A model generated the notes under the pieces. The model was not told the origin of the DNA. It saw nothing but the letters and a program-made list of their open reading frames with translations, and ran no database searches. From an uncultured Candidatus Saccharibacteria bacterium (lineage in GTDB: Bacteria; Patescibacteriota; Minisyncoccia; Portnoybacterales; UBA2143), in NCBI GenBank assembly GCA_964596615.1, contig CAZQUN010000006.1, forward strand, positions 1 to 55,309: DNA of 55,309 bases. Direction: 5' to 3'. Made by a program: the position numbers and the translations under genes. Each line of letters starts with the position of its first letter. The stretch's first letter is position 1. Below are positions 1-27,430 of this stretch, one piece after another.

Positions 1-1191
1 ATATGGCCTGACAGTATAAGTAACTCTAATTGCTGGATGAGGAACAATTTGAGGTTTATAACCTAAATCGGCAATCTCTTCAGCTAATTTAATTGTGCCT
101 TGTTTTTTGCCTTGGTTAATAAACCCATAGCCACCTTTTATTTTCATATAGGGTTCGATTGCTTTTTTTACTTCATTGATGGCAGCTGCTTTTTCTTTTA
201 CCTCTAAGGAAATTTTGCTCGGGATAGTTATTATTTCTCCTTTCTTCCTTATTATTTTTGCGATTTCTGGATTGATTGCTTTTTTGGCTACTTTTTCGGC
301 TGGTAAAGCTGTTGTTTTCGACACTTCTTTTTTGGCTATCTCTTTTACTCCCGCAGTTACCCGTAATGCTCTTTCGTAAATATCTTTAGCTAAATTTTCT
401 CCTTTTATTCCTAAAGTCTTCAAGGTTTCTTGTTCCTCTTTAGGTAATCCTTTTATCACAATCGTGGTCGGCTTTTTGACTAATCCCTTTAGAGCATTGC
501 TTGCCACTTTCATCATTGGCTTAGTAATTGGCTTTAGGGCCGCGCCCGCTAATGGGAAAGCCGCTCCAAATAATGCCCCGTGTGCTACTGCTTCTTCTCT
601 AGTTTGGCCTTCAGTTGGTCTTTCTAATCCGCTGATAGCAGCGAATGGCAATGCTACTTTCGCCATCTTTTTAACTAGGCCCGGCATAACTTTGGTTCCT
701 ATTTTTGCTATCTTGGCTATCTTGGGCGCTTTAAGCGCTAATTTCCCTGCTATTGCCAATCCTTTTTCTGCTGCTCCAAAAGGAATCAACCAAGATTCCA
801 TTTCGCCAATCGGCCTGGTAATCTTGGCTGCTTTTTCTTCGATTTCTGTTTTTTTGAACTTAGGGAACCAATAACCCAATGTTAAGCCCTTAGCCACTCC
901 CGTAGCCATTCCTTTTAATGCTCCAGTGGTTGCTTCCGGGATTGGGCTTACTCGTTTCCCAACTCCAAATAGCTGCTTGGTAGTTTCGTGCTTCAGGGGA
1001 GTAATCGGTTTAGTCAGCTCTTTTGTTTTTTTCTCGGCTGTTACTTTCTGTTCTGGCGTTAATCCCGCCCCCACTTTAAAAGTCATTGCCTTCTTTTCAG
1101 GTTTTTTTTCTGTCTTTTTCTTAAACCATTCGTCAATGGTTTTGCCCACTGTTTTGAATGGAGATGTAAATTGCTTCCAAAAACTTGGCAT
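1..1191 (-). CDS. Phage virion/internal protein; N-terminus present, C-terminus cut by the window edge (397 codons visible)
   Basis: ATG at 1191 (plus-strand cat at 1189-1191) with the frame open down to position 1. It is absent from the supplied track because there is no stop in the window. My translation begins MPSFWKQFTSPFKTVGKTIDEWFKKKTEKKPEKK... and is Ala/Gly/Lys-rich with hydrophobic stretches (GAAEKGLAIAGKLALKAPKIAKIAKIG, HGALFGAAFPLAGAAL). The plus-strand ORFs at 176-1504 are shadows of this frame. Confidence 0.7.
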   Translation of the reverse strand, partial: MPSFWKQFTSPFKTVGKTIDEWFKKKTEKKPEKKAMTFKVGAGLTPEQKVTAEKKTKELTKPITPLKHETTKQLFGVGKRVSPIPEATTGALKGMATGVAKGLTLGYWFPKFKKTEIEEKAAKITRPIGEMESWLIPFGAAEKGLAIAGKLALKAPKIAKIAKIGTKVMPGLVKKMAKVALPFAAISGLERPTEGQTREEAVAHGALFGAAFPLAGAALKPITKPMMKVASNALKGLVKKPTTIVIKGLPKEEQETLKTLGIKGENLAKDIYERALRVTAGVKEIAKKEVSKTTALPAEKVAKKAINPEIAKIIRKKGEIITIPSKISLEVKEKAAAINEVKKAIEPYMKIKGGYGFINQGKKQGTIKLAEEIADLGYKPQIVPHPAIRVTYTVRPY

Positions 1192-1299
1192 AGTAACAAT
1201 AGATGAGTAAATGGGTCGTCTCCTCTTTGAATCGTCGCACACGGGCGATTCAGTGGCGTCATTTTGCCGCAAATTGATTGGGATCAGCTACTTAGTGAA

Positions 1300-2631
1300 C
1301 TATTTTCCCCAAAGACGGGCCCACCATGATTTCGGTTCATTTGCTGCCAACCACTCATCTGGAACCTCTGCATACACTACATTACTAACTTCTTCTGGAG
1401 TAAGATCCGCTAATTTCCCTATCATCTCTATTACGAATTCCTCCCTTGTGCCAGCCCCCTCATCGCCTTCCTTTGCCCATTCTTCTTTATATTTCCCAAT
1501 ATAATCACTTAAAAGTTTTTTCTCTCTATCTGCAGCTCTTTCTTGAGTAGGAGTACGTCCTTCTTCTTTAGCTGTCAGCCACTCCATATAGGACATTCCC
1601 GTGCCAGCTTCTCCGCCTGCTAATTCCCATTCTTGATAAGAAGTAGGCGGCTTATATCCTCCAGCTTCTCCTTGCTGAGTTTTATACCAATCTAATTTCT
1701 GTTGGTCCTCCCATCTTTTTCTCTCTTCTTCTGCTTCAGCTAATCGTTGAGCAAAATCCATCTGCCATCTCTCTTGTTCTGTCCCGGTAGCTAGTTCTTG
1801 ACTTCTAATAGTTTGATAAGTAGCCAATTGATTACTTAACCAATTTAGATTGTTTTGCATATTCTGAACTTCTTGTTGTTTATCTGAAGTTTCCATTGCT
1901 ATCTTTTTAGTCACTTCATCTAAAGTGGTGTTGTAAGAATCTGCCAATCCGTTTCTCTGATTTATTAAATTATTGATATTGGCATTGGCTAACTTTTCTA
2001 TCTCTGACGCTTCTCCTGTGATAGTGGCCGCCGAATAATAAGGGTTTCTTCTAACTTTGCTAATTGAAGCATCTTTAACATTTTTTTCATCTGATATCTG
2101 ACTATCTATTTTAGCAATCTTGTCTTTGATGTCTGTCAGTCCTTTATTGTTATATTCTTCTTCATACCTTTTTGTCTGATATCCTACTAAAGCGCTTTGC
2201 GCTGATTCTAATTGACTCTTGGTATTTTCCATATCTGTCTGTAGTTTAGGGATATCGTAAACGCCGCCAGTGACGCTGGTTTTTGGCTCGGCGCCTGCGC
2301 CTTTAATTGCCGTGTACTGACTCACAAAATCATCATAACTTACAGATTTTTTCTCGGCCGGCTCGCTCGTTTTTGACTTGCTCCATTCACTTGGCACCTT
2401 GGACTGATACTCTGTGGGTATTGCCTTTAAGGTATCTTCAATCTGTCCCCAGATATTCTTTTCTTGGGCCTCTTCATAGGGAATATATCTGCCTGTTGTT
2501 TTTTCAAATACATGGGGACTTCCTTGATATCTGATATAAGATTTCTGCTTCGGTTCTGTCTTTATTTTTGTCTTAGACAATTCTTCTAAAGTCATTGGCA
2601 ATTGTGAAATTGGTGTATAATTTGTTGGCAT
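1300..2631 (-). CDS. Phage coiled-coil protein (putative internal virion/ejection protein)
   Basis: 443 aa with an ATG start. The central region is long and Q/E/K-rich with heptad-like character (LESAQSALVGYQTKRYEEEY..., NNLNWLSNQLATYQTIRSQELA). It lies downstream of the tail fibre, as internal proteins do in T7-like gene orders. No catalytic motif was seen. Confidence 0.45.
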   Translation of the reverse strand: MPTNYTPISQLPMTLEELSKTKIKTEPKQKSYIRYQGSPHVFEKTTGRYIPYEEAQEKNIWGQIEDTLKAIPTEYQSKVPSEWSKSKTSEPAEKKSVSYDDFVSQYTAIKGAGAEPKTSVTGGVYDIPKLQTDMENTKSQLESAQSALVGYQTKRYEEEYNNKGLTDIKDKIAKIDSQISDEKNVKDASISKVRRNPYYSAATITGEASEIEKLANANINNLINQRNGLADSYNTTLDEVTKKIAMETSDKQQEVQNMQNNLNWLSNQLATYQTIRSQELATGTEQERWQMDFAQRLAEAEEERKRWEDQQKLDWYKTQQGEAGGYKPPTSYQEWELAGGEAGTGMSYMEWLTAKEEGRTPTQERAADREKKLLSDYIGKYKEEWAKEGDEGAGTREEFVIEMIGKLADLTPEEVSNVVYAEVPDEWLAANEPKSWWARLWGK

Positions 2632-2635
2632 AATT

Positions 2636-2863
2636 TTATGATTTTTTCTCGACCTTTGACGGTTTTACTTCTTTAATTTTGCCAGTAGTTAAATCTATGT
2701 CATAAGTCTTGCTGGCATCCAATCGATATTTTGGATACTTATTCAATAAAAAATTCTGCCTTTGGGTCTCTAAGGCCTGAGCAATTAAGAGATACTGGTT
2801 GATTAACTCAACTCGCTTTCTTAATTCCTCTAAATCTGTTTTGTCTAATTTTTTTGAAAACAT
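2636..2863 (-). CDS. Small phage protein, unknown function
   Basis: 75-aa ORF with an ATG start, tightly packed between neighbours. Its 3' end contains one copy of the AAAGGTCGA motif. Confidence 0.6.
   Translation of the reverse strand: MFSKKLDKTDLEELRKRVELINQYLLIAQALETQRQNFLLNKYPKYRLDASKTYDIDLTTGKIKEVKPSKVEKKS
2649..2657 (-). promoter_or_regulatory. AAAGGTCGA motif copy (plus strand TCGACCTTT), 18 nt upstream of the 2631 start
   Basis: Exact 9-mer. See the motif finding. Confidence 0.6.
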
Positions 2864-2876
2864 CGTTTTTGCTTTT

Positions 2877-3980
2877 TTAAATTATTGAGCTTTCTATTTT
2901 TGACAGCCGCTTGTCTAAATCTTTTAATACCCCAACTGAAGCTAATATTAATGTATCCATTCTCATTCCCTGATTCTCACCTTTCCCGTCTTTAAGCTCT
3001 GATGCCATGCTGCTCGGGTCAATCCTGACATTATCTGATTTATTCTTTAGCTTTCTGATAATGTCTATCGCCTTTCTTACATCCATTAAGGGCTGGGAAT
3101 GAGAGACCAATCCGCCGCTGCCGTAATGAACCGAATACCAATAATTAGTGGCTATGCCTAATTGAGCTGAATTGCTTAAACTGCTGTCTGGAACGAAATG
3201 CGCGTTAGCTAAACCATTGATATAAATATGAGTGCCGTCAGCTCCGATTGAATTATTTCCGCCCCCCAAAGCCATTACTTCCCCCTCAATAGTAACGCTT
3301 GAATTGATATTGACTCCCAAACTGATATCGGCCGCTTCTACTTTAAACACACTTCCCACTGAATCGCCATAAATTATGGCTCTAGTTACACCACTGGCGT
3401 CATAGAAATGCAGAGCTTCGGTAGTTAGTTTTACCCTTAAATAAGTCGCATCATAACATTGCAGAAAATTCGTACTGTCTAATATGACCATTGGTTTAGT
3501 GGCCGAGGTTCTAACTGTCCTTCCAGTTAAAATTCCGGTGGTGATTTTATCAGCGCTCAAATCGGCAATCTTGGCATTTGTTACTTGCAAATTCCCGATA
3601 TGAGCATTAAGAATCTGACCCGTGCCAATATGAGCCGATTGAATGACTGCGTCATCTACCTGAATTGATAATGTGATTATCGCTTCGCTCTGAATTAACT
3701 TTTGAGCATTCACAGCTCCATTCTTTATTTTCTGAGTGGCTACGGCCGCGTCAGCTAATTTTTGTTCGGTTACCGCCAATGCTTTAAGGTGCTGCGTCCA
3801 GACCGCCTCATCTTCTATTTTTGCGGTCCCTACTGCTCCTGATTTTATCTGGACGCTTCCTATTGATGACGGAGCGAGCATTGGCGAATTATTGCCATCG
3901 TGAGTATGCGGAGTTGTCTCTGGAAACGGTTGATCGTCTATTTCTCTGTTTATGAAAATTTTTTTGACAAGTTTTAACAT
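2877..3980 (-). CDS. Phage tail fibre protein
   Basis: Shaft-like repeats are present: GAVGTAKIEDEAV, LADAAVATQKIKNGAVNAQKL, SAHIGTGQILNAHIGNLQVTNAKIADLSADKITTG. The C-terminal ~90 aa (LMDVRKAIDIIRKLK...VLKDLDKRLSKIE) resembles intramolecular-chaperone ends of fibres. The ATG at 3980 sits 1 nt after the upstream stop; the track start at 4016 is a TTG inside the upstream gene. Confidence 0.65.
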   Translation of the reverse strand: MLKLVKKIFINREIDDQPFPETTPHTHDGNNSPMLAPSSIGSVQIKSGAVGTAKIEDEAVWTQHLKALAVTEQKLADAAVATQKIKNGAVNAQKLIQSEAIITLSIQVDDAVIQSAHIGTGQILNAHIGNLQVTNAKIADLSADKITTGILTGRTVRTSATKPMVILDSTNFLQCYDATYLRVKLTTEALHFYDASGVTRAIIYGDSVGSVFKVEAADISLGVNINSSVTIEGEVMALGGGNNSIGADGTHIYINGLANAHFVPDSSLSNSAQLGIATNYWYSVHYGSGGLVSHSQPLMDVRKAIDIIRKLKNKSDNVRIDPSSMASELKDGKGENQGMRMDTLILASVGVLKDLDKRLSKIESSII

Positions 3981-3981
3981 G

Positions 3982-5427
3982 TTAGAGAATTCCCAATGAT
4001 TCAAAATAATTAGCAACAGCGATTACTTCTGGAGTCTCGTTGCCTGCTGGATAAAGATTTAGAGCAATTTCATATTCTTCCCCCCTGCCTTTTTCTTCTC
4101 CTTCCCCATCTCCAGTCTCAATAGTAAAGACCGCTTTGGTCATTCCCTCTTTATCAAATTGTTCTGCTCCATCTTCCATTGTTGCCTTTTTCCAGCTTTC
4201 CTCTTCGTTTAATCGGTAATAAACCTCTATGCTGCAATTTTTAGGCAATGCTCTAGTCAGAAGTTTAATATGTCGGAATCCCTTCTGAACAAATGGCTCA
4301 CCAGCGTCAAAGACCAATCCTTCATATCTGGCTTCTGCTTTATTATCTTCGTCTATGGTATCCACTCCGTAATTTGTACCATCCCTCCATGAAATATAAG
4401 GTTTATCGCTATACATTCCGATCGCCCCTATTTCGACATCCACCATTTTTCCGTGTGATAGAATATAGTCCAAATTCAAGGCATAAGGGTCATTCTTGTT
4501 TAATCTGCCGTAAGAATAAACTCCGCACTTATCTGAACCGATTAATCCAAGGACCGGCAATCCGTTCATGTTGGCTATGCCTTGTGGGTTAACCCATCCT
4601 CCGCCTGGAAGCTGCTTAATCCGAATCAAGCTCGCCGTATCCCAGAAATAAAGTCCGCCATTAACCCCTGCCTGAATGATGAGAAATTCCGCATTTAGTA
4701 TTGCGTTGATTCCTTTCTCGGCTATCATCCTTTTCTGAATCCAAGATGGTTCAATCTTATCCCAAGTCCAAAGCCATCCTTCTTCTACTTTGTCGCCTTT
4801 GGTTGAACCAATCACAACTAATTGATCGGTGTCTAATAAACATTTCGCCCGGTTGCCTGGAATTAAATCCAGGGCCTGATTGTTAAAATTTCCTTCATAA
4901 TCCACCATTGCCATGTATCTGCCATCACAAATCATTAATACTCCGCAAGCCATTCTCATCGTATGCCAAGACACATCGCCATTAAGATTTCCCCAATTAT
5001 GCTCTACATCAGTTGCCCAATTTCCAGCCAGTGGGATCCTGCTTAATTTAGTCTCGGTTGCCCAATAAAGGTATGTTTTGTATGTTCCGCCACCGTCATT
5101 ATTTGTGTATTCGCCCGCCCCGGTTATCTTTCCGTTAGCATCGGTATATTTTAACTCCCAAGCCGAAGACGGCGTGTCTTTGCTGTAAATATTTCCCGAA
5201 TTGCCGAATCCATAAATTTTGCCGTTGGTGGCTGGAACGAAGAATAAAATCAAATCGGTTACTACTGTTCCCGAATCTTTTTTTAAGGCCTGGTTGCATT
5301 TCAGAGTGTCGCCGCCTGAACGAATATCTAATCCATAACCGAATCTAAAGGCTCCCTTTACTCCTTTGTAAGCGTCATCAGCAATCCCGCCGCGGAATCC
5401 CTGAATTTTGTAAACGTTCAAGGACAT
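3982..5427 (-). CDS. Phage tail structural protein (position of tail tubular/nozzle protein B)
   Basis: 481 aa, beta-rich and W/G/N-rich. It lies between a 204-aa protein and the fibre, matching the gp11/gp12/fibre order of podoviruses. The call rests on position only. Confidence 0.4.
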   Translation of the reverse strand: MSLNVYKIQGFRGGIADDAYKGVKGAFRFGYGLDIRSGGDTLKCNQALKKDSGTVVTDLILFFVPATNGKIYGFGNSGNIYSKDTPSSAWELKYTDANGKITGAGEYTNNDGGGTYKTYLYWATETKLSRIPLAGNWATDVEHNWGNLNGDVSWHTMRMACGVLMICDGRYMAMVDYEGNFNNQALDLIPGNRAKCLLDTDQLVVIGSTKGDKVEEGWLWTWDKIEPSWIQKRMIAEKGINAILNAEFLIIQAGVNGGLYFWDTASLIRIKQLPGGGWVNPQGIANMNGLPVLGLIGSDKCGVYSYGRLNKNDPYALNLDYILSHGKMVDVEIGAIGMYSDKPYISWRDGTNYGVDTIDEDNKAEARYEGLVFDAGEPFVQKGFRHIKLLTRALPKNCSIEVYYRLNEEESWKKATMEDGAEQFDKEGMTKAVFTIETGDGEGEEKGRGEEYEIALNLYPAGNETPEVIAVANYFESLGIL

Positions 5428-5432
5428 AAATT

Positions 5433-6047
5433 TTAAAGCTGCCTTGAGCTTATTGCCCGTCCCTTATAAACACCCGAGGGTTCTTCATCTTCTCTGTTTT
5501 TTATTTCTTGAATCATGGCGCTGGCTTCTAATATTTCTTCTTTTGCGTCGTTTTTCCGCCCTGGCTCTTTTTTAAGACAAACAGCCAAAGCAAACTTTAC
5601 AATCGGTTCGTCCATTTCTTCTGGCGTAATTGGCTCATCAGTCAGCTCTACCAATCTTACTGGTCTTCTAATGTGATAAATGTCTATGGTTTTGCCGTCT
5701 TCTCCTATGGTTGGATTGATTAAAAACTGGTCTCCCATAATGGTATAAACTCTTTCCCAAGCATAGTTTCCACCTTGGTAATCTTCTGGATCTACTGGAT
5801 GATAAATCTTGCCGTCTACCTTTAGAGAAATCATTGATTTGTAATCAAATGGCAGATAATAAGCTTCTTTGTCTTTTTCGGTATTTATAGTGGAAGGTTT
5901 TTTTAGAAATTTCCATCTGGCAAAATTGCACGCCCTAACGATAGCTTTATTTATCCATCCTTTTTTATCTTCTTCACTCCAAAAGCCAGTTGTCTTTGAA
6001 GCTGACATTCTGGCATTTAGGTCCTGTAAAAATTCTTGTAGTTGCAT
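5433..6047 (-). CDS. Phage structural protein (position of adaptor/tail tubular protein A)
   Basis: 204 aa with an ATG start, directly upstream of the putative nozzle gene. The call rests on position only. Confidence 0.35.
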   Translation of the reverse strand: MQLQEFLQDLNARMSASKTTGFWSEEDKKGWINKAIVRACNFARWKFLKKPSTINTEKDKEAYYLPFDYKSMISLKVDGKIYHPVDPEDYQGGNYAWERVYTIMGDQFLINPTIGEDGKTIDIYHIRRPVRLVELTDEPITPEEMDEPIVKFALAVCLKKEPGRKNDAKEEILEASAMIQEIKNREDEEPSGVYKGRAISSRQL

Positions 6048-6049
6048 AA

Positions 6050-7696
6050 TTAGGTTAAACTGCCTGTTCTTCTATATTGTTGAACATAGGGCAGTAAATT
6101 ATCGCCAGGACAATCAGTTGATGATTCTGGCACTTCTCCGTGTCCAAATACTTTTTCTTTGGGAATGCCCTTTTTCTTGCAAAGGTCGTCTAATAATGTC
6201 TGTAAGGTTGCTAATTGAGCCACCGATGGCGTTTCGTTTAATCCACTACTCTCGAAATCCCCGCTTAAACAAATCCCTATACTGCGGTAATTCTGTTTAT
6301 TGTCATTGCAATGAGCTCCAATTTTATTTTCTGGTCTTCCTTCTATTAACTCGCCATCTCCATCAGCGGCCCCAGCAATCCATTTATGATATCCAATATC
6401 ACCCCAACCATAGCCAATATGATTATTTTTAATCGTCTCAAATTGAGTAGTATCTCTGGCTGTACCTGAATGATGGACAATAATAAACTCTGGATAATTC
6501 GCTTTTTCCCAATCGGCCATATCTTTTTTCGTTGACTGAATCGTTCTTTTCCTCTGCCAAGCAATGACTAATTGAGCTGGAAACTCTCCGCTATTTTTAC
6601 TGTAATCCCAAGGAAGTTTAAAATTCCCGCTGTGACTTTTCCAATCTTCTATTACTAATCCAATCTTATTGCTTTTTAACCATCCACTTCTATCAATAAT
6701 TTCTTGAATAATTTCTTTTAAATCTGGTGATTCATAGACGCTTTCGGCTGACCAATGTTCTCCTACTATCACCCCTGATTCTGTGTATCCAATAAACCAT
6801 TCTGTTTGAGCTATTGTCTTTTCTCTGGTTGAAGGTCTATTTGAACCATCTAATTGAAATGGCGCGGCGTCATCTTCAGCAAACCCCTTGATTAATAAAT
6901 TTGGGTAAGCGTTGTTCTGATTTGATTGAATTAGTAATAATACTGCTGAAATAATTCTCGCTCCTTTGGGAATATCTATACCGCTGAAAATAAATCCGCC
7001 ATCGCAAGAACCGCTACCGTCATTTCCTATAGTGATTAAATTTCCAAATCCATCCCCATACCAAGTAGTTTTATAATCTTCTTCGCCATCTCTATCATTT
7101 GCCGCCAAATAACCAACTGTTACTTCTTGGTCAAAATACCAAATTTCTAATTCTGCTTGATATCCTTCGCCTTTGTTTTTATCCCAACAGGTTTCAGTTT
7201 GCCCATCCACCGAGCCATTATCTTCAATAACAAAAGCGATAGCGTTACCTGGTTTCCAGTCGGCCTGGGCAACAATCTCTTCTACTATCAAATGGAAATT
7301 AGGACTTTGAACCCACTCATGAACTTCCCACTTTTTGATAATATGCCAAGTCTTATTGTTAAGGGTCTTACTTCTCTGACTCGGTCTATTGCTTTGACTA
7401 AACGGTTTTGTATCTGCTTCTTTAATTCCTTTAATGATTAGTTTTACATCTGGGTCTACGCTATCAGTGTAAGCTGGCTTCAATTTTAATCGGGCCAACA
7501 TTATTTTTGCGTCTTTGGGAATGTTCACATCCCTAAACCTGAATGCTGCATGCTGGACAACCTCGTCGTATCTACCGAAACTTATGATATTGCTTGTGTT
7601 GCCTTCTGAATACCAGGTCTCGTTATTCTTTTCTCTGCCGTCATCATTGTTTTGATTGACAGCGGTTTTAAGTTTTAAGACCTGATATTTTGGCAT
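6050..7696 (-). CDS. Virion-module N-acetylmuramoyl-L-alanine amidase (Amidase_2/PGRP type) with two N-terminal copies of an unknown ~150-aa domain
   Basis: The C-terminus has a T7-lysozyme/PGRP-like pattern: EFIIVHHSGTARD...IGYHKWI...GRPENKIGAHCNDNKQNYRSIGICLSGDF...GHGEV...TDCPG. The N-terminal two thirds contain two repeats that are paralogous to the adjacent 198-aa protein. Confidence 0.85.
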   Translation of the reverse strand: MPKYQVLKLKTAVNQNNDDGREKNNETWYSEGNTSNIISFGRYDEVVQHAAFRFRDVNIPKDAKIMLARLKLKPAYTDSVDPDVKLIIKGIKEADTKPFSQSNRPSQRSKTLNNKTWHIIKKWEVHEWVQSPNFHLIVEEIVAQADWKPGNAIAFVIEDNGSVDGQTETCWDKNKGEGYQAELEIWYFDQEVTVGYLAANDRDGEEDYKTTWYGDGFGNLITIGNDGSGSCDGGFIFSGIDIPKGARIISAVLLLIQSNQNNAYPNLLIKGFAEDDAAPFQLDGSNRPSTREKTIAQTEWFIGYTESGVIVGEHWSAESVYESPDLKEIIQEIIDRSGWLKSNKIGLVIEDWKSHSGNFKLPWDYSKNSGEFPAQLVIAWQRKRTIQSTKKDMADWEKANYPEFIIVHHSGTARDTTQFETIKNNHIGYGWGDIGYHKWIAGAADGDGELIEGRPENKIGAHCNDNKQNYRSIGICLSGDFESSGLNETPSVAQLATLQTLLDDLCKKKGIPKEKVFGHGEVPESSTDCPGDNLLPYVQQYRRTGSLT

Positions 7697-7697
7697 A

Positions 7698-8294: not shown

Positions 8295-8298
8295 AAAT

Positions 8299-14623: not shown

Positions 14624-14630
14624 CAAAATA

Positions 14631-16043: not shown

Positions 16044-16090
16044 TATCTTTTGGTGACCAAACAAAGTCAAGACTTTTGGCTCTAGCAAGC

Positions 16091-19742: not shown

Positions 19743-19746
19743 GTTT

Positions 19747-21096
19747 TTAAAACAAAGGTTGTTGAGCTAATCTTCTTTTGATGATTTTGATGTATTCAGG
19801 ATTTAATTCTATACCAATCCAATTCCTGCCAAGACTTTGAGCTACCAAAGCGGTGGTGCCTGCCCCCATAAAAGGATCTAGAACTATCCCTGCTTTATAT
19901 TCTGGATTTTTACAATCACATTTTGTCCAACCAATAGTTTTACCAGCATATTTGACAGTATTATCACCTTTTCTTTCCCCCTTTTGACGCCTTTTAAGAT
20001 ATTCTCCCGAGGTGGCGCCAATTCCTTTATGCTTTCCTTTATTTAAATTCTCTATTAATCTTTCTCTGGCTTTTCCGCATTTGACACAAATTTCAGCCGG
20101 GCAAGAACTCTTAATCATTGGCTCTATTAATTTAGCTGGAAATGTGGCGAAATGCGCCTCGGGAAATCCTCTCGTAGATATAGTCCATACATCTCCTGGA
20201 TTCTTCCCGCCTTTTGGCAACTCAATCATTTTTCTTTTACCGCCTGATTTTAAGGAACCGGTCATTCTCGCCTTGCTTCCAGTTCCCTGATCTCCATAAG
20301 GATTCATTAAATATTTTGCCCGTTGAATAGACGCTGTCTTATGAGGTTTCCTGATAGCATCTAAATCAAAATAATATCTATTGGCTTTGGTCAAGAAAAA
20401 TACCAGTTCATAGCAAGTAGTCAGGCGGTCTTTCACGCTTGAAGGCATTGCGTTGGGCTTATGCCATATGATTGAATTTCTAAGTACCCAGCCCTGTTCA
20501 TCAATCATTCTCAAAATCAGACGATAATTCTGAAGCATTAAACATTTAGCAGGATAATTTTGGGGCTGTGGGGGTTTATTTTTATCAGGCACCCAATTGA
20601 TTTCTTTTGAAGAACTAATATTGTCATAGGTTGTCCTCCTGCCATGACTTCCTAATCCCGTTGAATAATTATCGCCATGATTCCAAAACATTACTCCAGT
20701 CGGCTTTAAAACTCTTTTAAGTTCAGCTGCAATTTGAAGAATATGTTCTATAAATAATTCTAAGGTCGGCTCTAACCCCAATTGCCCATACCAGGCCCCG
20801 CATCTTTGACAAAAACCTTCCTTCCTGATTCTATTAACATCCATATTCGCCGCTATTCCTTTTTTATCAAATTGACCATGCCCGCCCCTGTAATTCGGGT
20901 CCCTCTTTTTTTCTAACTTAAATTTATGTTTGCATTTTAAGTCGCCGCCCCAAACGATTCTGGTTTGATCACCATAATCCCTTAACCCCCAGTAAGGCGG
21001 ACTAGTGACTATTGTGTCTATGGTATCTGCTGGAAAAGTTCGTAAAATTTCAATCGCATTTCCACAAATAACTCTGTTTATTGGCAGCTTTTTCAT
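19747..21096 (-). CDS. DNA methyltransferase, beta class, SPPY motif IV (N4-cytosine or N6-adenine)
   Basis: Motif IV is IVTSPPYWGLRDYG near the N-terminus and motif I is VLDPFMGAGTTALVA near the C-terminus. An LGLEPT block is also present. No partner endonuclease is seen. Confidence 0.85.
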   Translation of the reverse strand: MKKLPINRVICGNAIEILRTFPADTIDTIVTSPPYWGLRDYGDQTRIVWGGDLKCKHKFKLEKKRDPNYRGGHGQFDKKGIAANMDVNRIRKEGFCQRCGAWYGQLGLEPTLELFIEHILQIAAELKRVLKPTGVMFWNHGDNYSTGLGSHGRRTTYDNISSSKEINWVPDKNKPPQPQNYPAKCLMLQNYRLILRMIDEQGWVLRNSIIWHKPNAMPSSVKDRLTTCYELVFFLTKANRYYFDLDAIRKPHKTASIQRAKYLMNPYGDQGTGSKARMTGSLKSGGKRKMIELPKGGKNPGDVWTISTRGFPEAHFATFPAKLIEPMIKSSCPAEICVKCGKARERLIENLNKGKHKGIGATSGEYLKRRQKGERKGDNTVKYAGKTIGWTKCDCKNPEYKAGIVLDPFMGAGTTALVAQSLGRNWIGIELNPEYIKIIKRRLAQQPLF

Positions 21097-21123
21097 GAAG
21101 CGTGTAATGTATCTACCTTTTCA

Positions 21124-21153
21124 GAAAAACCGCACACAAGCCCATCTGTGCGG
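21124..21153 (-). terminator. Rho-independent terminator after the ParB-methylase gene
   Basis: The minus strand reads CCGCACA-GATGGGCTTG-TGTGCGG followed by TTTTT, starting right after the stop codon. Confidence 0.7.
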
Positions 21154-22431
21154 CTACTTCTTGGGTAATTGGCTAATTCTTGTCCATCTCTGGCGAATTA
21201 CATCGCACCAGCGCGGGTCCAACTCCATTAGGTAGGCTGTTCTTTCCAACTTATGAGCTGCCATCAAAGTTGATCCACAGCCCGCAAATAAGTCCACTAC
21301 TAATTGTCCGACCTTGCTTGAATTTTTAATCGTTCTCATTATAAGCCATTCTGGTTTCTCGGTTGGGTGAAGCATCTTGGTAATAGCTTTCCTGGGCATT
21401 TCCCAAACATCGCTTTGACTCAAGTCGCCATAAAAATAATGTCTCTGCCCTTTTTTCCAGCCGTAGATAATTGGTTGCGCCTTACTACCACTTCTTCCCT
21501 TTTTACCTTTCATCACTTGTTCGTATTGTTTTTTATAATCTCCCCAGCCCATTGAGAAAGATGGCTTGACCCAAACAATCGTGGTCGAAAACTCAAATCC
21601 TGCATTAAGCATTTGGTAATAAAATAAGGGATAGGATGTATAGCCGGTGCAGATATAAATTGTCTTGCCCGGTTTTAGTAGCCGATTATAGCTATCAAAA
21701 AATTTTTGGGTGAACTCACTAAATTCCTCCTGGCTTTGCTGGTCCCCAAGAATCTTTCCTTTCTCGGTTGGAAATTTTCCTCTTTTCTCATGGCTAATAT
21801 GGGATACATTATAAGGCGGGTCGGTAAAAACCATATCTGCTTGCTCTTCGCCCATTAGCTTTTCGATATCTTCTATCTTGGTAGAATCGCCGCACATTAG
21901 TTTATGCCTGCCCAAATTGTAAATCTCGCCATATTTTGATTGGGATTTTTTCTTTAACATCTCTTGTTCTTTTTCTATCTCTGTCTCCGGGTCTCCTTCT
22001 TTTCGTAGCATTTGCGTATCCAATAAATTACTAATTTCTACTTCATTGAATCCGCTCAAAGTTAAATCAGCGTCTGCCCGACTTAAATCATGGATTAATT
22101 CTGCTAATTTACTTTCATCCCAATCCGCTTTGATTCTATTCAATGCTAAATTAAGAAGTTTTTCTTTATTCTCTGACAAATTTACTTCTACATAAGGAAT
22201 TGATTCCCATCCTAATTCTGTTGCCGCCTTTACTCTCATATTGCCTCCGACTACAATATTTTCTCTATTTTTATACTTATTTATTACTATTGGCTCTACA
22301 CATCCAAACCCGCTCATTGATCTTTTGAGCGACTCGTATTCTTTGGCTGACATTTCTCTAGGATTATAATAAGCCAGTTTCAGCTTCTTTATTTCTATTT
22401 CTGGATAGTTTTTTTGGTTAGTTTTCGCCAT
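21154..22431 (-). CDS. ParB-like N-terminal domain fused to an N6-adenine-type DNA methyltransferase (DPPY)
   Basis: The N-terminus is ParB-like (VEPIVINKYKNRENIVVGGNMRVKAATELGWESIPYVEV). Motif IV is VFTDPPYNV and motif I is VVDLFAGCGSTLMAA. Confidence 0.85.
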   Translation of the reverse strand: MAKTNQKNYPEIEIKKLKLAYYNPREMSAKEYESLKRSMSGFGCVEPIVINKYKNRENIVVGGNMRVKAATELGWESIPYVEVNLSENKEKLLNLALNRIKADWDESKLAELIHDLSRADADLTLSGFNEVEISNLLDTQMLRKEGDPETEIEKEQEMLKKKSQSKYGEIYNLGRHKLMCGDSTKIEDIEKLMGEEQADMVFTDPPYNVSHISHEKRGKFPTEKGKILGDQQSQEEFSEFTQKFFDSYNRLLKPGKTIYICTGYTSYPLFYYQMLNAGFEFSTTIVWVKPSFSMGWGDYKKQYEQVMKGKKGRSGSKAQPIIYGWKKGQRHYFYGDLSQSDVWEMPRKAITKMLHPTEKPEWLIMRTIKNSSKVGQLVVDLFAGCGSTLMAAHKLERTAYLMELDPRWCDVIRQRWTRISQLPKK

Positions 22432-22941: not shown

Positions 22942-22973
22942 GACACACGATTTTACAACTATCCTGATTCCAA

Positions 22974-23055: not shown

Positions 23056-23063
23056 CGAATCTT

Positions 23064-23363
23064 TTAGATGTCTAGATTATCCAACCCTGAATCTTTGCCA
23101 ATGCGGCTCCCTGGTTGAGCTGGGACTTCCAACTTGATATTTAATCTGGCTCGATTCTTGGCTCCTATCGCATTCATTACCATTCTGATGGCTTGAATGG
23201 TTTTCCCTTGTCGTCCAATAACCAATCCTGCATCTCCATCGCCAAGTTTAACCGAAAGCAAAACCCCCATCTCATCGGTTGTTTTCGCCACCTTTACCTC
23301 TTCAGGCTTAGTGACAATCGCTTTTAGAATAGTTTCTAAAAGTTCTGTGATTTTATCGTTCAT
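23064..23363 (-). CDS. khpA: Phage-encoded KH-domain RNA-binding protein (KhpA/UPF0109-like), paralogous to the host gene at 29959-30303
   Basis: The protein begins MNDKITELLETILKAIVTKPEEVKVAKTTDEMGVLLSVKLGDGDAGLVIGRQGKTIQAIRMVMNAIGAKNRARLNIKLEVP. It aligns by eye with the host protein through DEMGVLL, the GXXG loop IGRQG, AIR and KN.AR.N.K.E.P. The ATG at 23363 is preferred because the track start is a TTG. Confidence 0.8.
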   Translation of the reverse strand: MNDKITELLETILKAIVTKPEEVKVAKTTDEMGVLLSVKLGDGDAGLVIGRQGKTIQAIRMVMNAIGAKNRARLNIKLEVPAQPGSRIGKDSGLDNLDI

Positions 23364-23393
23364 TGTTTTATCTTTATTCCTTAAATTATTTTT

Positions 23394-23402
23394 TCGACCT
23401 TT
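23394..23402 (-). promoter_or_regulatory. AAAGGTCGA motif copy, 31 nt upstream of the phage khpA-like start and overlapping the upstream TAA stop
   Basis: Exact 9-mer, followed after 7 nt by ATTTAAG. Confidence 0.6.
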
Positions 23403-23943
23403 ATTTATCCCAGCAATTCTGACTCTGTTGCCAGTGCTGGCTTCCTTCAATTTTTAATAAATATAAAGCAGCTTGATAATTTAACTCGGCATCAAAAGGA
23501 CTCCCATCTGTTCCCATTCCTCTCATCACATAATCCCAAGTGTCTGGAATAAATTGAGCCAAGCCCATTCCGCCTTCGCATCCATACTCTTTATTGCAAA
23601 CGCTTGCATCCCACTCACTTTCGCAGGTTATAATTCTCTCAAGAAGTAATCTTCTTTGTATCTCTGATTCTGGCTCTATTTTCTCCTCAAGTTTTCCTTC
23701 TGGCGTCATGATATAAACCCTGCCTTTAATAATGGCTTTTTCGCCTTCTGGCAAAACTTCAAGAATGCTATTCATCATTTCCTTTTCTATGCATTTACAT
23801 TCCGGGCATATCCATTCGTCACAACATTCCCATCCCTTCTTCCACTCTGTATATGTCCCATAAATAAAACTAACTAAAAACAAAATTATCATTGTTGCAA
23901 TAATTAGGGTTACTCGAAAAATTCTGACTTGATATCGATTCAT
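23401..23943 (-). CDS. Membrane-anchored lytic transglycosylase (SLT domain)
   Basis: It has an N-terminal TM segment (VTLIIATMIILFLVSFIYG). SLT blocks are ITCESEW (catalytic Glu-Ser), GGMGLAQFIPDTW and YQAALYLL. The ATG at 23943 forms an ATGA overlap with the upstream stop; the ATG at 23961 is also possible. Confidence 0.75.
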   Translation of the reverse strand: MNRYQVRIFRVTLIIATMIILFLVSFIYGTYTEWKKGWECCDEWICPECKCIEKEMMNSILEVLPEGEKAIIKGRVYIMTPEGKLEEKIEPESEIQRRLLLERIITCESEWDASVCNKEYGCEGGMGLAQFIPDTWDYVMRGMGTDGSPFDAELNYQAALYLLKIEGSQHWQQSQNCWDK

Positions 23944-24347
23944 TGTTTTAATTCTGCCCATGATGGAAGAAAATATTCCCTTTCTACTCTATATTGGATA
24001 CATTCATTAAAAGCTATCCGTACTAATTCCTTACTGTCTAAATCGCTTAACTCTGGTTGTAGTTCAAATTTTCTTTCAATAAAATGCAAAAGATGATGAC
24101 AAAAATCATGCATTTCTGACTCTATCCTTTCCTCGGCATCTCGTTTTCCTCTTCCATAAATTTCCTGAATCAATGCTTGAGGAATTTTATCTTCAGTTAT
24201 CGGCTCTTTATTTTGTGATGCCTTATACCAAAACCATCCTGAAAATTTTGAACACCACCTGTAATCCTTTGGGCATTCTTTTGGATCGCAACGAAAAGAA
24301 AAATGATTTTTAATTGGACAAATTTGGGGAGTTAGATTTTTTTTCAT
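23940..24347 (-). CDS. Phage protein, unknown (Cys/His-containing N-terminus)
   Basis: 135-aa ORF with ATGA overlaps at both ends. Confidence 0.55.
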   Translation of the reverse strand: MKKNLTPQICPIKNHFSFRCDPKECPKDYRWCSKFSGWFWYKASQNKEPITEDKIPQALIQEIYGRGKRDAEERIESEMHDFCHHLLHFIERKFELQPELSDLDSKELVRIAFNECIQYRVEREYFLPSWAELKQ

Positions 24348-25195
24348 GATTTTGATTCCTTATAAATAGCTCTCATAACTTTAGTCCCGTCTGGCCGAAC
24401 AATTTCTTCCCATCTAATTATTTTTCGACCTTTCTTTTTCTTCTGGGCAACTACTTCATCTATGAATTTAGTAATGGTTTCCAGGGTAAATTTCTTGATA
24501 TAATCTGTGTTTTTAACTGCTTTGACGGTATCGCAAATATCCTCATTGCTATAACCATTTAAGAGTCGGGCTGGCTTACAATTCCTCTGAATAATGGACT
24601 GGATTTGCTCGTCGTTTTCTGGGTGCAGCTCTTTTTCTTTTATCCAAATCCCGATTATTTGGATGTGTCGCTTCTGATCTTTTAAAAGATTTTCTATCTC
24701 TTTTTCTAAATCCCAGTCCGTCGGCTTGTCCGACATATTCTTTTTGTAAACAGATTTGTTTTGTAAGGCGGTTTGTTTTGTAGCACGCATTTTTTGCTTA
24801 GTTATTTTTGCCACGCATTTTTTGCTACCTTTTATCCTGCCTATAAAAGTTTTTCCTAATCTGTAGAAAATTTTACCGCCGCGACCTATTCTTTCTCTTT
24901 TTCTCGGCGTATCTAATAATTCGCCGTTTTCATCTCTGGCCTCTATCCATTCTTGCTTGATGCAGTTGTTAATTGCATCTGTTATTGATCTACCTTTCTT
25001 GCCAGTCAATCGTATTAGTTGACTTCTTGAAATCCAGTCTTCTTCTTTCCTCATTCCTGTTTCTGGATCTGCTATCCAGCCCAATGTTTTTCTGGTCACT
25101 ATCAACACAATCCTTAATTCGGTATCTTTCATTTTTGCCATTTCCCCGTTAAGTAATTTATTGGGAACTTGAGTTGTGTTTGGAAGATTTGACAT
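24344..25195 (-). CDS. Replication initiator/replisome organiser (phage RepO-like winged-helix N-terminus)
   Basis: The N-terminal pattern is TTQVPNKLLNGEMAKMKDTELRIVLIVTRKTLGW...DWISRSQLIRLTGKKGRSITDAINNCIKQEWI. This matches the 'vPN..l...L...E.rv.l.i.R.T.GW...is.sql...TG' signature of phage O-type initiators. Confidence 0.65.
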   Translation of the reverse strand: MSNLPNTTQVPNKLLNGEMAKMKDTELRIVLIVTRKTLGWIADPETGMRKEEDWISRSQLIRLTGKKGRSITDAINNCIKQEWIEARDENGELLDTPRKRERIGRGGKIFYRLGKTFIGRIKGSKKCVAKITKQKMRATKQTALQNKSVYKKNMSDKPTDWDLEKEIENLLKDQKRHIQIIGIWIKEKELHPENDEQIQSIIQRNCKPARLLNGYSNEDICDTVKAVKNTDYIKKFTLETITKFIDEVVAQKKKKGRKIIRWEEIVRPDGTKVMRAIYKESKS

Positions 25196-25257
25196 AACAT
25201 GGAACGAAACAAGCCCTCTGCTATTAGGACAAGTTTCTTTATTTAATTTATTCGCCT

Positions 25258-25341
25258 CTCATCTCTGCTCCCGCTTGCTCGGCTCATGCCCCTGCGGTGA
25301 ACCTACAAGGAAGGAGCAAGGAAAGGAGCAGAGTCAGGGGC
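25258..25341 (-). ncRNA. Structured element B (conserved ends CTCATCTCTG...CAGAGTCAGGGGC), directly after the ATPase gene stop
   Basis: The 9-bp outer stem is CTCTGCTCC (25263-25271) with GGAGCAGAG (25325-25333). The inner stem is CTTGCTC (25274-25280) with GAGCAAG (25314-25320). Confidence 0.55.
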
Positions 25342-25344
25342 GAA

Positions 25345-26457
25345 TTACCGCTTATTCTTATCTTCTTTTCTTTGAATTACTAACATTGTCTGTCCGCCTT
25401 TTTTCTTGTATTCAGCCCTTCCAGCTTCTACCACTAAATCCATAATTTCTCGATATCCATCCTTCAATGCATCAGGCATCAATCCTTTGATCGCTGTCAT
25501 GCTGGTCGTGCCAAACGCCTTGTAAAGAGTGTCTAGCTTAAACTGCTTGTCTGCTCCGTTGTATCCTGGGGCAACTCGGGCAAGCAATCCTTCAATTTCT
25601 TCAATCCATTTATCTCGTTCTTTTCTGAATACCAGCTTTTGTTCTTCGGTCTTAAACAGGACTGCCGCATCTCCTTCTGGTGTTAATATAGATTTCTTAT
25701 CGAACGGATTATCCATCATCGCTTCGATAGTTGGGGCAAAATTCTCAAAAGTCGGGTTTTTGAATGTCTTGCCGTCCAGTAACGCTGCTCTATCTTTTAA
25801 GACAGTCGCTTCTCTCCAAACTTTCTTTTCATCTTTTCCGATCACTTCCTCGTATCTTTCCATTAAAAGCAGCATATCTGGCTCGTAGGCGGTTTCTCCC
25901 TCTACTTTCATCTTGACACCTGACTTATAGATTTCTCGCTTGCGAGTATCTGGATTGATTTCACTCTCATACTCATAACCGGCCCGGCCACACATAATAA
26001 TGTGATAAGGCTCATTGACGAATGGTTCAGAAAATTCTTGCTTCCAAGTCGGCTTGATAATCCCCCAATCCTGAAATTGCAGAAATGTCCGATTGGCCTT
26101 CTTCCGATACGCTTCAAGGAAGTTCTCCCAGACATGCGAGATTGAATCTATAATCAGGATATCCCCGGCTCCTTCTTTCATTCTTCTCATCGTTTCTTTT
26201 AAGTCGGCTAGCGACTTTGACTCGCGCACTAAGAGTTTAATTTTCTTTTCGGCAAATAACGGCTTTAAGAATTTAGCTGCCTTTTCAGTGTCAAATATCA
26301 CTATCGGCTTTTTTGATTTAATTCTCTGATGCAACCCTCTGGCAATTAAGGATGCGGTGTAAGTCTTGCCGCTGCCAGCGAAACCTTCTAAAGCTGCTTT
26401 AAAGAACGGCTTGGTGTTATCGGCTGCGGTAAAGAAATCATCTTTCTTTCTGGTCAT
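25345..26457 (-). CDS. P-loop ATPase (AAA_24/Sak4-like phage NTP-binding protein) with a C-terminal extension
   Basis: Walker A is GFAGSGKTYTA and Walker B is ILIIDSISHVWE. It lies in the replication module. 370 aa. Confidence 0.7.
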   Translation of the reverse strand: MTRKKDDFFTAADNTKPFFKAALEGFAGSGKTYTASLIARGLHQRIKSKKPIVIFDTEKAAKFLKPLFAEKKIKLLVRESKSLADLKETMRRMKEGAGDILIIDSISHVWENFLEAYRKKANRTFLQFQDWGIIKPTWKQEFSEPFVNEPYHIIMCGRAGYEYESEINPDTRKREIYKSGVKMKVEGETAYEPDMLLLMERYEEVIGKDEKKVWREATVLKDRAALLDGKTFKNPTFENFAPTIEAMMDNPFDKKSILTPEGDAAVLFKTEEQKLVFRKERDKWIEEIEGLLARVAPGYNGADKQFKLDTLYKAFGTTSMTAIKGLMPDALKDGYREIMDLVVEAGRAEYKKKGGQTMLVIQRKEDKNKR

Positions 26458-26574
26458 GGTAGTTATCCTATTGACCTCGCCAAAGTTCTCAATTATACTT
26501 TCTTTAGGTGAGGACTTCTGGCTTCGGTCAGAAGTTCTTTCTATTTCAGATGGTTTTTACAAGTTTTCCTTCTT

Positions 26575-26583
26575 GCGACCTTT
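26575..26583 (-). promoter_or_regulatory. Variant motif AAAGGTCGC upstream of the ATPase gene
   Basis: One mismatch. It lies 118 nt upstream of the 26457 start, just after structured element C. Confidence 0.35.
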
Positions 26584-26600
26584 TAGCGAGCGGTTAGCCG

Positions 26601-26720
26601 CTCATCTCTGGGCTGGTAAGTCTTGAGGTTTATGACCACCATCTTCTGACTTACGCTGAGAATAGTGCGCTCCATCCCAGACAAGGTGGATTGTCTCCCT
26701 CACAGCCCAGAGTCAGGGGC
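26601..26720 (-). ncRNA. Structured element C (same conserved ends as B), directly after the 26720-26944 gene stop
   Basis: The 10-bp outer stem is CTCTGGGCTG (26606-26615) with CAGCCCAGAG (26703-26712). Inner hairpins are GTAAGTC/GACTTAC and GACAA/TTGTC. Confidence 0.55.
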
Positions 26721-26944
26721 TAATCTTCTGTCACTTTAATTTTCCCGTTTGAAAGAGCTTGCCTTTCTATTTCTAAATCCAGATTGTAGATTATTTCTTT
26801 ATTAGGAAGTTTAACTGCTCTGTTTCTAACTGTGATTTCCACTTTATCGCCATCGTCATTATGAATTCTTATCTTCCTGGTCCTATTCTTAACATCGGTT
26901 TTTGGCAAAATGATATGGGGAAATTGTTTGCCGCGCGGCTTCAT
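26720..26944 (-). CDS. Small phage protein, unknown
   Basis: 74-aa ORF with an ATG start forming an ATGA overlap with the upstream 57-aa ORF. It is followed immediately by a 120-nt structured element. Confidence 0.55.
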   Translation of the reverse strand: MKPRGKQFPHIILPKTDVKNRTRKIRIHNDDGDKVEITVRNRAVKLPNKEIIYNLDLEIERQALSNGKIKVTED

Positions 26945-27114
26945 AGTTGTATCGCTTTAATAGCTACTTCTTTTACCTTCTTGCTACTTATTTCTTTACG
27001 GTGTTTATCCATGGCTCGTTTTACTGCTACTGCCATTCTACTTGCTCCTTCCCGGTATTCCTTTTCTACGGGGTAGGGAAGTTCAACTTTGATTTTTATA
27101 AGATAATTTTTCAT
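26941..27114 (-). CDS. Small phage ORF (57 aa), below the track cutoff
   Basis: My translation is MKNYLIKIKVELPYPVEKEYREGASRMAVAVKRAMDKHRKEISSKKVKEVAIKAIQL. Its TGA overlaps the ATG of the next gene (ATGA). It fills an otherwise empty 250-nt gap on the coding strand. Confidence 0.45.
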   Translation of the reverse strand: MKNYLIKIKVELPYPVEKEYREGASRMAVAVKRAMDKHRKEISSKKVKEVAIKAIQL

Positions 27115-27161
27115 TATTCTTTCCTTTCTCTCTTTCTCTAGTTTAACCAGATCTCGCTGGC

Positions 27162-27170
27162 CCGACCTTT
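27162..27170 (-). promoter_or_regulatory. Variant motif AAAGGTCGG, 48 nt upstream of the 57-aa ORF
   Basis: One mismatch. It lies directly after the HTH-gene terminator. Confidence 0.4.
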
Positions 27171-27177
27171 GACATAA

Positions 27178-27215
27178 TAAAAAGCACGGCTAAATTACCT
27201 TGCCGTGCTTTTTTG
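27178..27215 (-). terminator. Hairpin terminator at the end of the HTH gene (symmetric, could act in both directions)
   Basis: AGCACGGC (27183-27190) pairs with GCCGTGCT (27202-27209). The stem is flanked by A-runs and T-runs on both sides. Confidence 0.65.
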
Positions 27216-27372
27216 CTAGTAGTTTTTTAATTTTAAATCTCTTAAGGATTTCACTAACCCTTTGGATTGAAATATTATATTCGTTGGCTATCCTTTTTTG
27301 CGACCAGCCCTTTTTTCTTAACTCTTTGATTTTATTATTGCGTTCGTTTTTCGCTAAGTGTGTGTTTTTCAT
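27190..27372 (-). CDS. Small HTH DNA-binding protein (resolvase/sigma-70 region-4-like HTH)
   Basis: It is a 60-aa ORF containing KIKELRKKGWSQKRIANEYNISIQRVSEILKRF. It forms an isolated unit between two strong hairpin terminators. Confidence 0.65.
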   Translation of the reverse strand: MKNTHLAKNERNNKIKELRKKGWSQKRIANEYNISIQRVSEILKRFKIKKLLAKKHGKVI

Positions 27373-27416
27373 ATATCAAAAACCGCACATCTATGAAAGT
27401 GCGCGGTTTTTGATAT
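27373..27416 (-). terminator. Long hairpin terminator downstream of the 16S precursor stem, abutting the phage HTH gene start
   Basis: ATATCAAAAACCGCAC (27373-27388) pairs with GTGCGCGGTTTTTGATAT (27399-27416), giving about 16 bp with a 2-nt bulge. Confidence 0.65.
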
Positions 27417-27430
27417 GTTTGATATCTAAT

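Follow-up and report, generated by a model that had tools for sequence, protein, structure and literature searches.

Phage genes behind a solitary 16S rRNA gene

The window analyzed here is the entire contig C6 (CAZQUN010000006.1; 55,309 bp) of an uncultured Candidatus Saccharibacteria bacterium whose genome is assembled in 15 contigs (724 kb, 93% complete). It carries the genome's sole 16S ribosomal RNA (rRNA) gene and, directly behind that gene, the phage part of a large insertion that probably continues on a second contig of the same genome, C7; coordinates without a prefix refer to the window, and the two contigs are numbered separately. The original prediction for this DNA, made from the sequence alone, had called the genome similar to those of the Candidate Phyla Radiation (CPR), and rightly so, because a protein named Candidatus Portnoybacteria shares 79% identity with LepA, whose remaining named relatives are all labelled Patescibacteria group.

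The 16S rRNA gene is intact and full length (27584-29121, minus strand; Rfam RF00177, 1412.6 bits, model positions 1-1533), and upstream of it lie the leader strand of a processing stem (29129-29153, minus) and a predicted promoter-like site (29184-29212, minus). To the right of the gene stand host genes (trmD, a KH protein gene, rpsP, rnc, nusB, rpmF, iscU and iscS), and to its left, through 1-27372, every long open reading frame (ORF) is on the minus strand. This left part had been read as co-oriented phage genes, a claim borne out by PHROG matches to terminase, portal, head, tail, methyltransferase and replication genes. The large terminase subunit TerL (17669-19201, minus; phrog_675, 1.4e-96), the portal protein (12713-14686, minus; phrog_332 at 2.5e-22, and phrog_156) and the major head protein (9270-10436, minus; phrog_1328, 7e-29) belong to one co-oriented module, the hallmark of Caudoviricetes, and 1-27372 is a tailed-phage genome. 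Comparisons were made with 40 related genomes, 36 genomes of the family and roughly 390 genomes of the class sampled outside the family; TerL occurs in none of the 40 related genomes and has relatives in IMG/VR, so that the region is phage DNA and not conserved core synteny.

The rRNA operon is cut at the 13-base 3' tail of 16S

Rfam and tRNA searches of the window found no 23S, 5S or spacer tRNA, as had been noted before. These genes lie on C7, where a canonical tRNA-Ile(GAU) (C7:44093-44167) is followed by the only 23S (C7:45265-49033) and the only 5S gene (C7:49093-49202) of the genome, both in mid-contig. In related genomes, the same genus included, tRNA-Ile, 23S and 5S start within 1.2-2.3 kb of the 16S gene. 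In four relatives (G018, G020, G021 and G012) the 23S gene lies 1.2-1.4 kb past the 16S gene on the same strand, and in a genome of the same genus (G001) one 3.7-kb contig runs from 16S through an internal transcribed spacer (ITS) matching C7:43320-45546 into 23S; all five show this uninterrupted site on single contigs. Moreover, in eight related genomes the 16S gene is directly continuous with its trailer. When the loci of the relatives were aligned to the genome, homology left C6 at about 27425 and returned at C7:43285-44043. Therefore, since host homology jumps there and tRNA-Ile follows, the rRNA operon is cut directly behind 16S, with its other half on C7. The original prediction had left two possibilities, a phage beside an unlinked 16S gene or a phage where the rest of an rRNA operon would be expected; the second stood, while the first did not, as 16S and 23S are linked in the relatives.

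CACCTCCTTTCTA, the 13 bases that end the 16S gene and include the anti-Shine-Dalgarno sequence, occurs in exactly two copies in the genome, as direct repeats. One is the 3' tail of the intact 16S gene itself (27581-27593, minus), the attL core; the other, an exact copy, is the second core, in front of the tRNA-Ile spacer (C7:43285-43297). Before the second core stands a degenerate look-alike of the 16S end, and after it a trailer of the type found in G001 and other relatives. The crossover falls within the 13-bp core, and the real junction is at 27581-27593.

From phage to integrase on C7

At its left end C6 has no k-mer overlap to any contig and is a dead end in the assembly graph. Its last ORF (1-1272, minus), the N-terminal 424 aa of a tail-fibre-like giant gene without a stop, is open off the contig end, and the first ORF of C7 (C7:1-3360) is open at its 5' end. 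The closest phage record, G041 (IMG/VR contig IMGVR_UViG_3300035698_027858, 33,839 bp), aligns with C6:296-1, then, 981 nt on, with C7:1-203, and then with C7:244-4489, and a single 1998-aa frame in it (23114-29107) spans the homologues of both fibre pieces. We infer that C6:1 continues into C7:1 across a gap of ~1 kb inside a fibre gene of ~2000 aa, and the insertion then measures ~72 kb between the cores (27.6 + 1 + 43.3 kb). Contig C5 was also considered as the holder of the missing phage end after a rearrangement, and was ruled out because it is collinear host DNA.

Beyond the fibre gene, C7 carries an endolysin of the amidase type (C7:3745-4305; PHROG) and a complete diversity-generating retroelement (DGR; C7:4727-8757). 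The latter consists of a 679-aa target protein with a variable repeat (VR; C7:6645-6763), Avd (C7:6826-7185; phrog_3206, 1e-21), a template repeat (TR; C7:7361-7479) and, on the opposite strand, a reverse transcriptase (C7:7498-8757; phrog_1423, 1e-109). VR and TR form a 119-nt repeat pair in which 14 of 14 differences fall at TR adenines. From the first phage gene in the window to the reverse transcriptase the phage measures ~37 kb.

The following ~33 kb up to the integrase (C7:8766-41836) bear no phage signature. This accessory block encodes a Big-domain protein, a LOOT RNA, nucleases, a D12/N4-N6 methyltransferase and an extracytoplasmic-function (ECF) sigma factor; a MacAB/HlyD-type exporter and a CbiA-ferredoxin protein with a cation-efflux protein; and a histidine kinase, a response regulator, a polyprenyl synthetase (only 31% identical to that of G001) and a methyltransferase. 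For the 843-aa Big-domain protein and the reverse transcriptase no relatives were found in viral contigs. C7:1-43285 as a whole has no counterpart in G001, except for a 3-kb block that is located elsewhere in that genome: the block C7:32390-35302 (CbiA/ferredoxin ATPase and cation-efflux protein) is 84-86% identical to its counterparts in the genera of G018 and G020 and 79% to that in G001. This suggests recent lateral transfer of the block, because it is closer to other genera than to G001 and lies at a different position there.

The integrase and the other junction had been predicted to lie outside the window, and both were located on C7, with no integrase in 1-27420. The integrase (C7:41837-43069) is an Xer-like tyrosine recombinase of 410 aa (PF00589, 1.2e-39; phrog_1, 4e-53) in which the catalytic R, K, HxxR and Y are present (motifs GMRIGE, GKGNKER, HILRH and RFY in the translation), and its gene ends inside the right end of the insertion, 216 nt before the second core. 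Its C-terminal extension holds two CxxC...CxxC motifs (a double zinc-ribbon). In a large protein collection only two close relatives were found, P0001 (91% identical, on a 1.4-kb contig) and P0002 (39%), the latter with the same C-terminal double zinc-ribbon. None of the 40 related genomes has an orthologue, their best match (33%) being their Xer, and species genomes and viral contigs yielded only Xer-like proteins of 22-36% identity. This enzyme probably catalysed the insertion.

The ends of the insertion resemble the ends of an rRNA operon

Both ends of the insertion carry conserved arms, of 155 nt on the left and 255 nt on the right (77-82% conserved). The left arm (27425-27580, minus) has the character of a replacement 16S trailer. 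It is unlike the host-type trailer found on C7 and in G001, from which it differs by a 17-nt deletion and many substitutions, and it is closest to the 16S-proximal trailers of inserted elements on two metagenome contigs (L073 and L076, below). The 16S leader at 29129-29153 finds a partner in 27431-27455 of this arm, with Watson-Crick or wobble pairs at 23 of 25 positions. Next to it stands a terminator hairpin (27373-27416, minus; RNA fold -25.7 kcal/mol, z -8.0), which none of 200 shuffles matched in folding, and homology with relatives and other elements ends at ~27425-27430, short of this hairpin. Since the trailer is unlike the host type and like the trailers of other elements, 27425-27580 and the terminator are part of the insertion. 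The original prediction had described the hairpin as the terminator of the 16S gene, touched by the first phage start codon. The hairpin is real and the ATG of the first phage gene does abut it, at 27372, 5 nt after the T-run; the hairpin and the 155 nt before it, on the other hand, belong to the insertion and not to the 16S gene.

The right arm (~255 nt, 77-80% conserved among copies) begins with a promoter-like site directed toward 23S (TTGACT-N16-TATAAT, kept in 7 of 8 copies), whose TATAAT lies at C7:43065-43070 here, followed by an invariant CTTCACAATCAAACC, a 10-bp hairpin and a leader-like strand. Each of the seven copies tested forms a stem between this strand and the trailer that follows the second core (-16 to -28 kcal/mol, z -2 to -8.6), and in one of them (L077) a U-A pair of the stem is changed to C-G. 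An RNA running from the start predicted in the arm near C7:43077 to the host terminator folds into a long-range stem around a 140-nt "mini-16S" (z -5.2). As a stand-alone structured RNA the right arm was rejected, RNAalifold giving almost no covariation for the local hairpins. Since that covariation is almost nil, two or three TGTAATGGATTT-like repeats in the arm are read as possible protein-binding sites, and they may be binding sites of the integrase. The displaced half of the operon has promoter-like sites of its own before tRNA-Ile and before 23S.

Judged by their sequences, the arms would form a repair kit for the split operon: on the left a trailer and a terminator, which would give 16S a processing partner and a stop, and on the right a promoter, a boxA/hairpin-like segment and a leader mimic, which would sustain the expression of tRNA-Ile, 23S and 5S.

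The same ends flank other cargo in other genomes

A search with a 22-nt string from the right arm and core retrieved six metagenome contigs. Two of them, L073 and L076, hold the whole arrangement on a single contig, running from 16S through core, left arm, a 7.7-kb island, right arm, core and trailer to tRNA and 23S; the island is a defence island (LexA-methyltransferase fusion, DUF3644 and others) and has no integrase. Three others (L074, L077 and L078) run from right arm and core into tRNA, 23S and 5S. Moreover, a genome of the family (G006, C34:2719-6425) has two identical right arms with cores 3.7 kb apart, which enclose a GNAT protein, a radical SAM/SPASM protein and a histone-deacetylase-family protein; downstream of this pair lie an IS3-type transposase pair and a NYN nuclease. 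The homology of the other elements to the present genome is limited to C6:27430-27714 and C7:43033-43377.

An invariant 23-mer of the right arm was found in 4 of the 36 family genomes, which belong to four different genera, and in none of the roughly 390 class genomes sampled outside the family. The patchy spread, the varied cargo and the precise empty sites fit a family of mobile elements, most copies of whose arms have lost, or never had, an integrase of their own. In a further genome (G004, C19:122-319) a sequence like the right arm, without a core, lies between the 16S trailer and tRNA-Ile, with a Shine-Dalgarno-like sequence and an ATG after it; this may be the remnant of a decayed element, or else a relative of the arm that is native there.

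Relatives of the phage

Ten IMG/VR contigs encode terminases with 52-85% identity to TerL; five of these contigs are 33-39 kb long, in line with the ~37 kb of the phage here. The best match of TerL among GenBank phages is only 26% identical. G041 shares 81-83% nucleotide identity and the same gene order with the insertion over C6:23760-1 and C7:1-4489. G041 and the other nine relatives have the giant fibre gene, the endolysin and the reverse transcriptase/Avd pair in common with the insertion; in G041 that pair is inverted relative to the DGR of the insertion.

The relatives differ from the insertion in their ends. The record of G041 lacks the early end and any attachment site, while more distant relatives (TerL 65-69% identical) have other integrases, beside the lysin, and no 16S-like sequence. 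No sequence like the 16S tail or trailer was found in five related phage records, and one related record (G044) has an 18-bp end repeat of its own.

A composite insertion by site-specific recombination, and its alternatives

We propose, at a probability of roughly 0.7, that a composite insertion of ~72 kb, made of ~37 kb of phage, ~33 kb of non-phage accessory genes and the integrase, entered this Portnoybacteria-like genome, in one step or in two, by site-specific recombination at the last 13 bp of the 16S gene, CACCTCCTTTCTA. The preceding sections establish both junctions, the uninterrupted site of the relatives, the connection of C6 with C7, the identity of the phage and the recurrence of the arms around unrelated cargo. 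Along the direction of rRNA transcription, the proposed order would be 16S, core, left arm (the 155-nt trailer pairing with the leader), the strong terminator and the phage; within the phage, the helix-turn-helix (HTH) and replication genes, methylases, terminase, portal, capsid, tail, the ~2000-aa fibre, endolysin and DGR; then the ~33 kb of accessory genes, the 410-aa integrase, the ~255-nt right arm and the second core; and finally the original host trailer, tRNA-Ile, 23S and 5S. With the new trailer supplying a strand of the processing stem and with the terminator behind it, 16S would still be matured and transcription would end before the phage genes. The right arm would supply a replacement promoter and leader, and the leader mimic would form a miniature pre-16S stem with the host trailer. 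Since 72 kb exceeds a capsid sized for ~37 kb, the phage may be stranded in the insertion.

Several observations weigh against this proposal: i) the attachment system at the 16S tail may not belong to the phage lineage, because the closest record lacks its early end and the integrases of the distant relatives are unrelated; ii) ~33 kb of non-phage genes separate the phage from the integrase, with no internal att remnant; iii) the join of C6 to C7 rests on a homologous phage and not on reads; iv) the link between integrase and arms rests on one locus, because the other arm-sharing elements have no integrase in the sequences examined; v) an excised circle, attP and an empty attB were not seen for this element in contigs, for which no alternative joints at the core were listed and in which rare forms are invisible; vi) scans of viral contigs for the right-arm end, the leader complement, core plus trailer and the invariant 23-mer were all empty; and vii) the roles of promoter, leader mimic and terminator are sequence predictions only.

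The most serious alternative, which we nonetheless hold to be unlikely, is that two insertions are stacked: an integrase-bearing accessory island would have come first and the phage later, either into the 16S-proximal copy of the core or by recombination into the left arm of the island, the internal junction then being lost. It would account for related phages that are complete at 33-39 kb and carry their own integrase beside the lysin, for the same arms around non-phage islands elsewhere, and for the tandem right arms of G006. Against it, no third core was found in C6 or C7 in an att-like context at <=2 mismatches, nor a further trailer at <=6, nor a further right arm, and a second integrase is absent between phage and accessory block.

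A doubtful alternative holds that the arms are an inherited "cargo bay" of a split operon, whose cargo is swapped by homologous recombination with no part for the integrase. Most arm copies do lack a nearby integrase, and arms of this length and conservation seem functional for the host. On the other hand, the site is plain and uninterrupted in G001 and most of the family, only 4 of the 36 family genomes, from four different genera, have the right arm, the intact tyrosine integrase ends inside the right arm, and the duplicated core has the exact length and position of an att core.

It is very improbable that 27373-27600 is an assembly chimera of a free phage and a host 16S contig, as the original prediction had asked to exclude for 27300-27600. 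The phage contig end is a dead end in the assembly graph and 16S regions are prone to misassembly, which would favour a false join; the junction, however, is bridged by Logan contigs from sea-water runs of three studies. A contig of run X1 (record 4) covers 25069-27801, two of run X4 (records 13 and 14) cover 26515-27448 and 27429-27665 with no differences, and run X5 has one for 27019-27572. In X1 the depth is the same to either side of the junction, phage and host, at about 5.4-6.3. X1 is possibly the source sample, and the study behind X4 also produced another possible source, so that the independence of these runs is limited. Moreover, this assembly has overlaps of 55 bp, far more than the 13 bp shared at the junction; C7 holds the reciprocal junction, to the displaced half of the operon; and the same layout stands on the single contigs L073 and L076.

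Finally, a 16S gene natively unlinked, with the phage merely adjacent, would agree with the missing 23S, 5S and tRNA and with the splitting of rRNA genes that is reportedly frequent in Patescibacteria, and is scarcely credible, being already contradicted by the eight relatives with contiguous 16S and trailer (four of which, together with G001, have 16S, ITS and 23S on one contig) and by the ITS with tRNA-Ile directly after the second core on C7.

Relation to known systems

The composite insertion proposed here works like the prophages and genomic islands that tyrosine integrases set into the 3' part of tRNA and transfer-messenger RNA (tmRNA) genes (P4-, lambda- and Islander-type), and by its target it is not a member of that family. 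As in those islands, a tyrosine recombinase stands at one end; a short core is the end of a stable-RNA gene and is repeated at both junctions; the element brings a replacement 3' sequence, so that the target gene stays intact; relatives show a precise empty site; and derivatives without integrase have the same ends. Unlike in those islands, the target is the 3' tail of 16S within an operon, the insertion parts tRNA-Ile, 23S and 5S from their upstream context, and the arms are long (155 and 255 nt) and apparently made of trailer and terminator on one side and promoter and leader mimic on the other.

With the R1/R2 retrotransposons of animal ribosomal DNA (rDNA; 28S) the insertion shares the specialization of mobile DNA on a highly conserved rRNA gene sequence. 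R1/R2 insert in the coding part by target-primed reverse transcription and inactivate the copy, in a multicopy rDNA; here a tyrosine recombinase is used, the only 16S copy is spared and the site is the very end of the gene. In full-text literature searches, no description of integration at the 3' end of 16S came up. As in the unlinked rRNA genes of CPR bacteria (Brewer et al.), 16S and 23S lie far apart in this genome; here, in contrast, they were parted by mobile DNA, in a datable insertion at a defined 13-bp site, and in close relatives the two genes are 1.2-2.3 kb apart.

Whether the element stands for a wider family, namely integrative elements of Patescibacteria that use the anti-Shine-Dalgarno tail of 16S, bring a two-sided repair kit for the operon and offer a route to rRNA unlinking, seems to us evenly balanced. 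If true, such insertions would give one concrete mechanism by which rRNA operons come to be split as often as they are, puzzlingly, in reduced genomes. The attachment site is among the most conserved sequences in biology and lies inside an operon essential for growth; this bacterium has only the one operon and yet withstands 72 kb at the site, and the ends of the insertion look built for keeping both halves working, which carries the logic of tRNA-gene integration over to rRNA. To our knowledge, few phages of Patescibacteria have been linked to a host by more than CRISPR spacers or binning, and in the present case the host's sole 16S gene is in physical continuity with a phage whose lineage has ten metagenomic relatives. 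In practice, binning and the linkage of 16S to genomes in such lineages will often break at this point.

Further features of the phage, the spacer and the window

The first gene of the insertion encodes a 60-aa HTH protein (27190-27372, minus; PF13518 HTH_28 at 1.9e-5, and other HTH families). Its start codon, so close behind the T-run of the terminator, leaves no space for a promoter or a ribosome-binding site, so that the gene may rely on transcripts reading through from the 16S promoter, unless the true start lies further in. It is followed, all on the minus strand, by a Sak4-like ATPase (25345-26457; phrog_1366/124), a protein like replication initiator O (24344-25195; phrog_18020), an SLT-like protein (23401-23961; PF01464, weak) and a KhpA-like KH-domain protein (23064-23450; PF13083, 1e-18). 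The host's own KhpA-like copy (29959-30327) adjoins rpsP, 6.5 kb from the phage gene, and a KhpA-like KH protein also occurs in a more distant phage relative (G042).

Further along the minus strand come two DNA methyltransferases, of which the second is a fusion with a ParB-like domain (19747-22431; phrog_67 and phrog_498), the small terminase subunit TerS (19122-19742; phrog_6299) and, past TerL, a phage-carried lytic transglycosylase resembling YceG/MltG (14916-16088; PF02618, 9.5e-65). The tail/baseplate module (1300-7696, minus; PHROG matches) is collinear with that of the related IMG/VR phages; it comprises a 548-aa protein with a C-terminal amidase domain (6050-7696), a virion structural protein (5433-6047) and a tail fibre (2877-4016), each assigned by PHROG, as well as proteins of 443 and 481 aa.

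The spacer on C7 (C7:43339-44998), which is the native one between 16S and 23S in this genus, holds two small membrane-protein ORFs that flank tRNA-Ile, one of 228 aa with a weak match to CDP-alcohol phosphatidyltransferases and one of 230 aa matching the transmembrane helices of mechanosensitive channels, and terminator-like hairpins follow both the trailer and the tRNA. The 23S gene is 3769 nt long against a model of 2925 positions, which implies about 0.8 kb of insertions; in related metagenome contigs the 23S gene has group I introns and the 16S gene a group I intron plus a group II fragment.

Apart from the phage insertion, the window contains a second island of lower G+C content (38393-49490; 33-36%), with an 862-aa SNF2-like protein, a 584-aa N6/N4 DNA methyltransferase, several orphan ORFs and a 589-aa large serine recombinase (47721-49490, plus), which belongs to this island and not to the phage insertion. 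On the opposite strand, tRNA-Gln(CUG) (49308-49381) overlaps the recombinase gene at its 3' end, and the region is possibly a serine-recombinase island at tRNA-Gln. Directly upstream of its methyltransferase gene lies a LOOT RNA (42742-42866, minus); this copy and that of the accessory block (C7:11974-12096) score 75.8 and 85.3 bits in Rfam, and both lie within mobile or accessory DNA.

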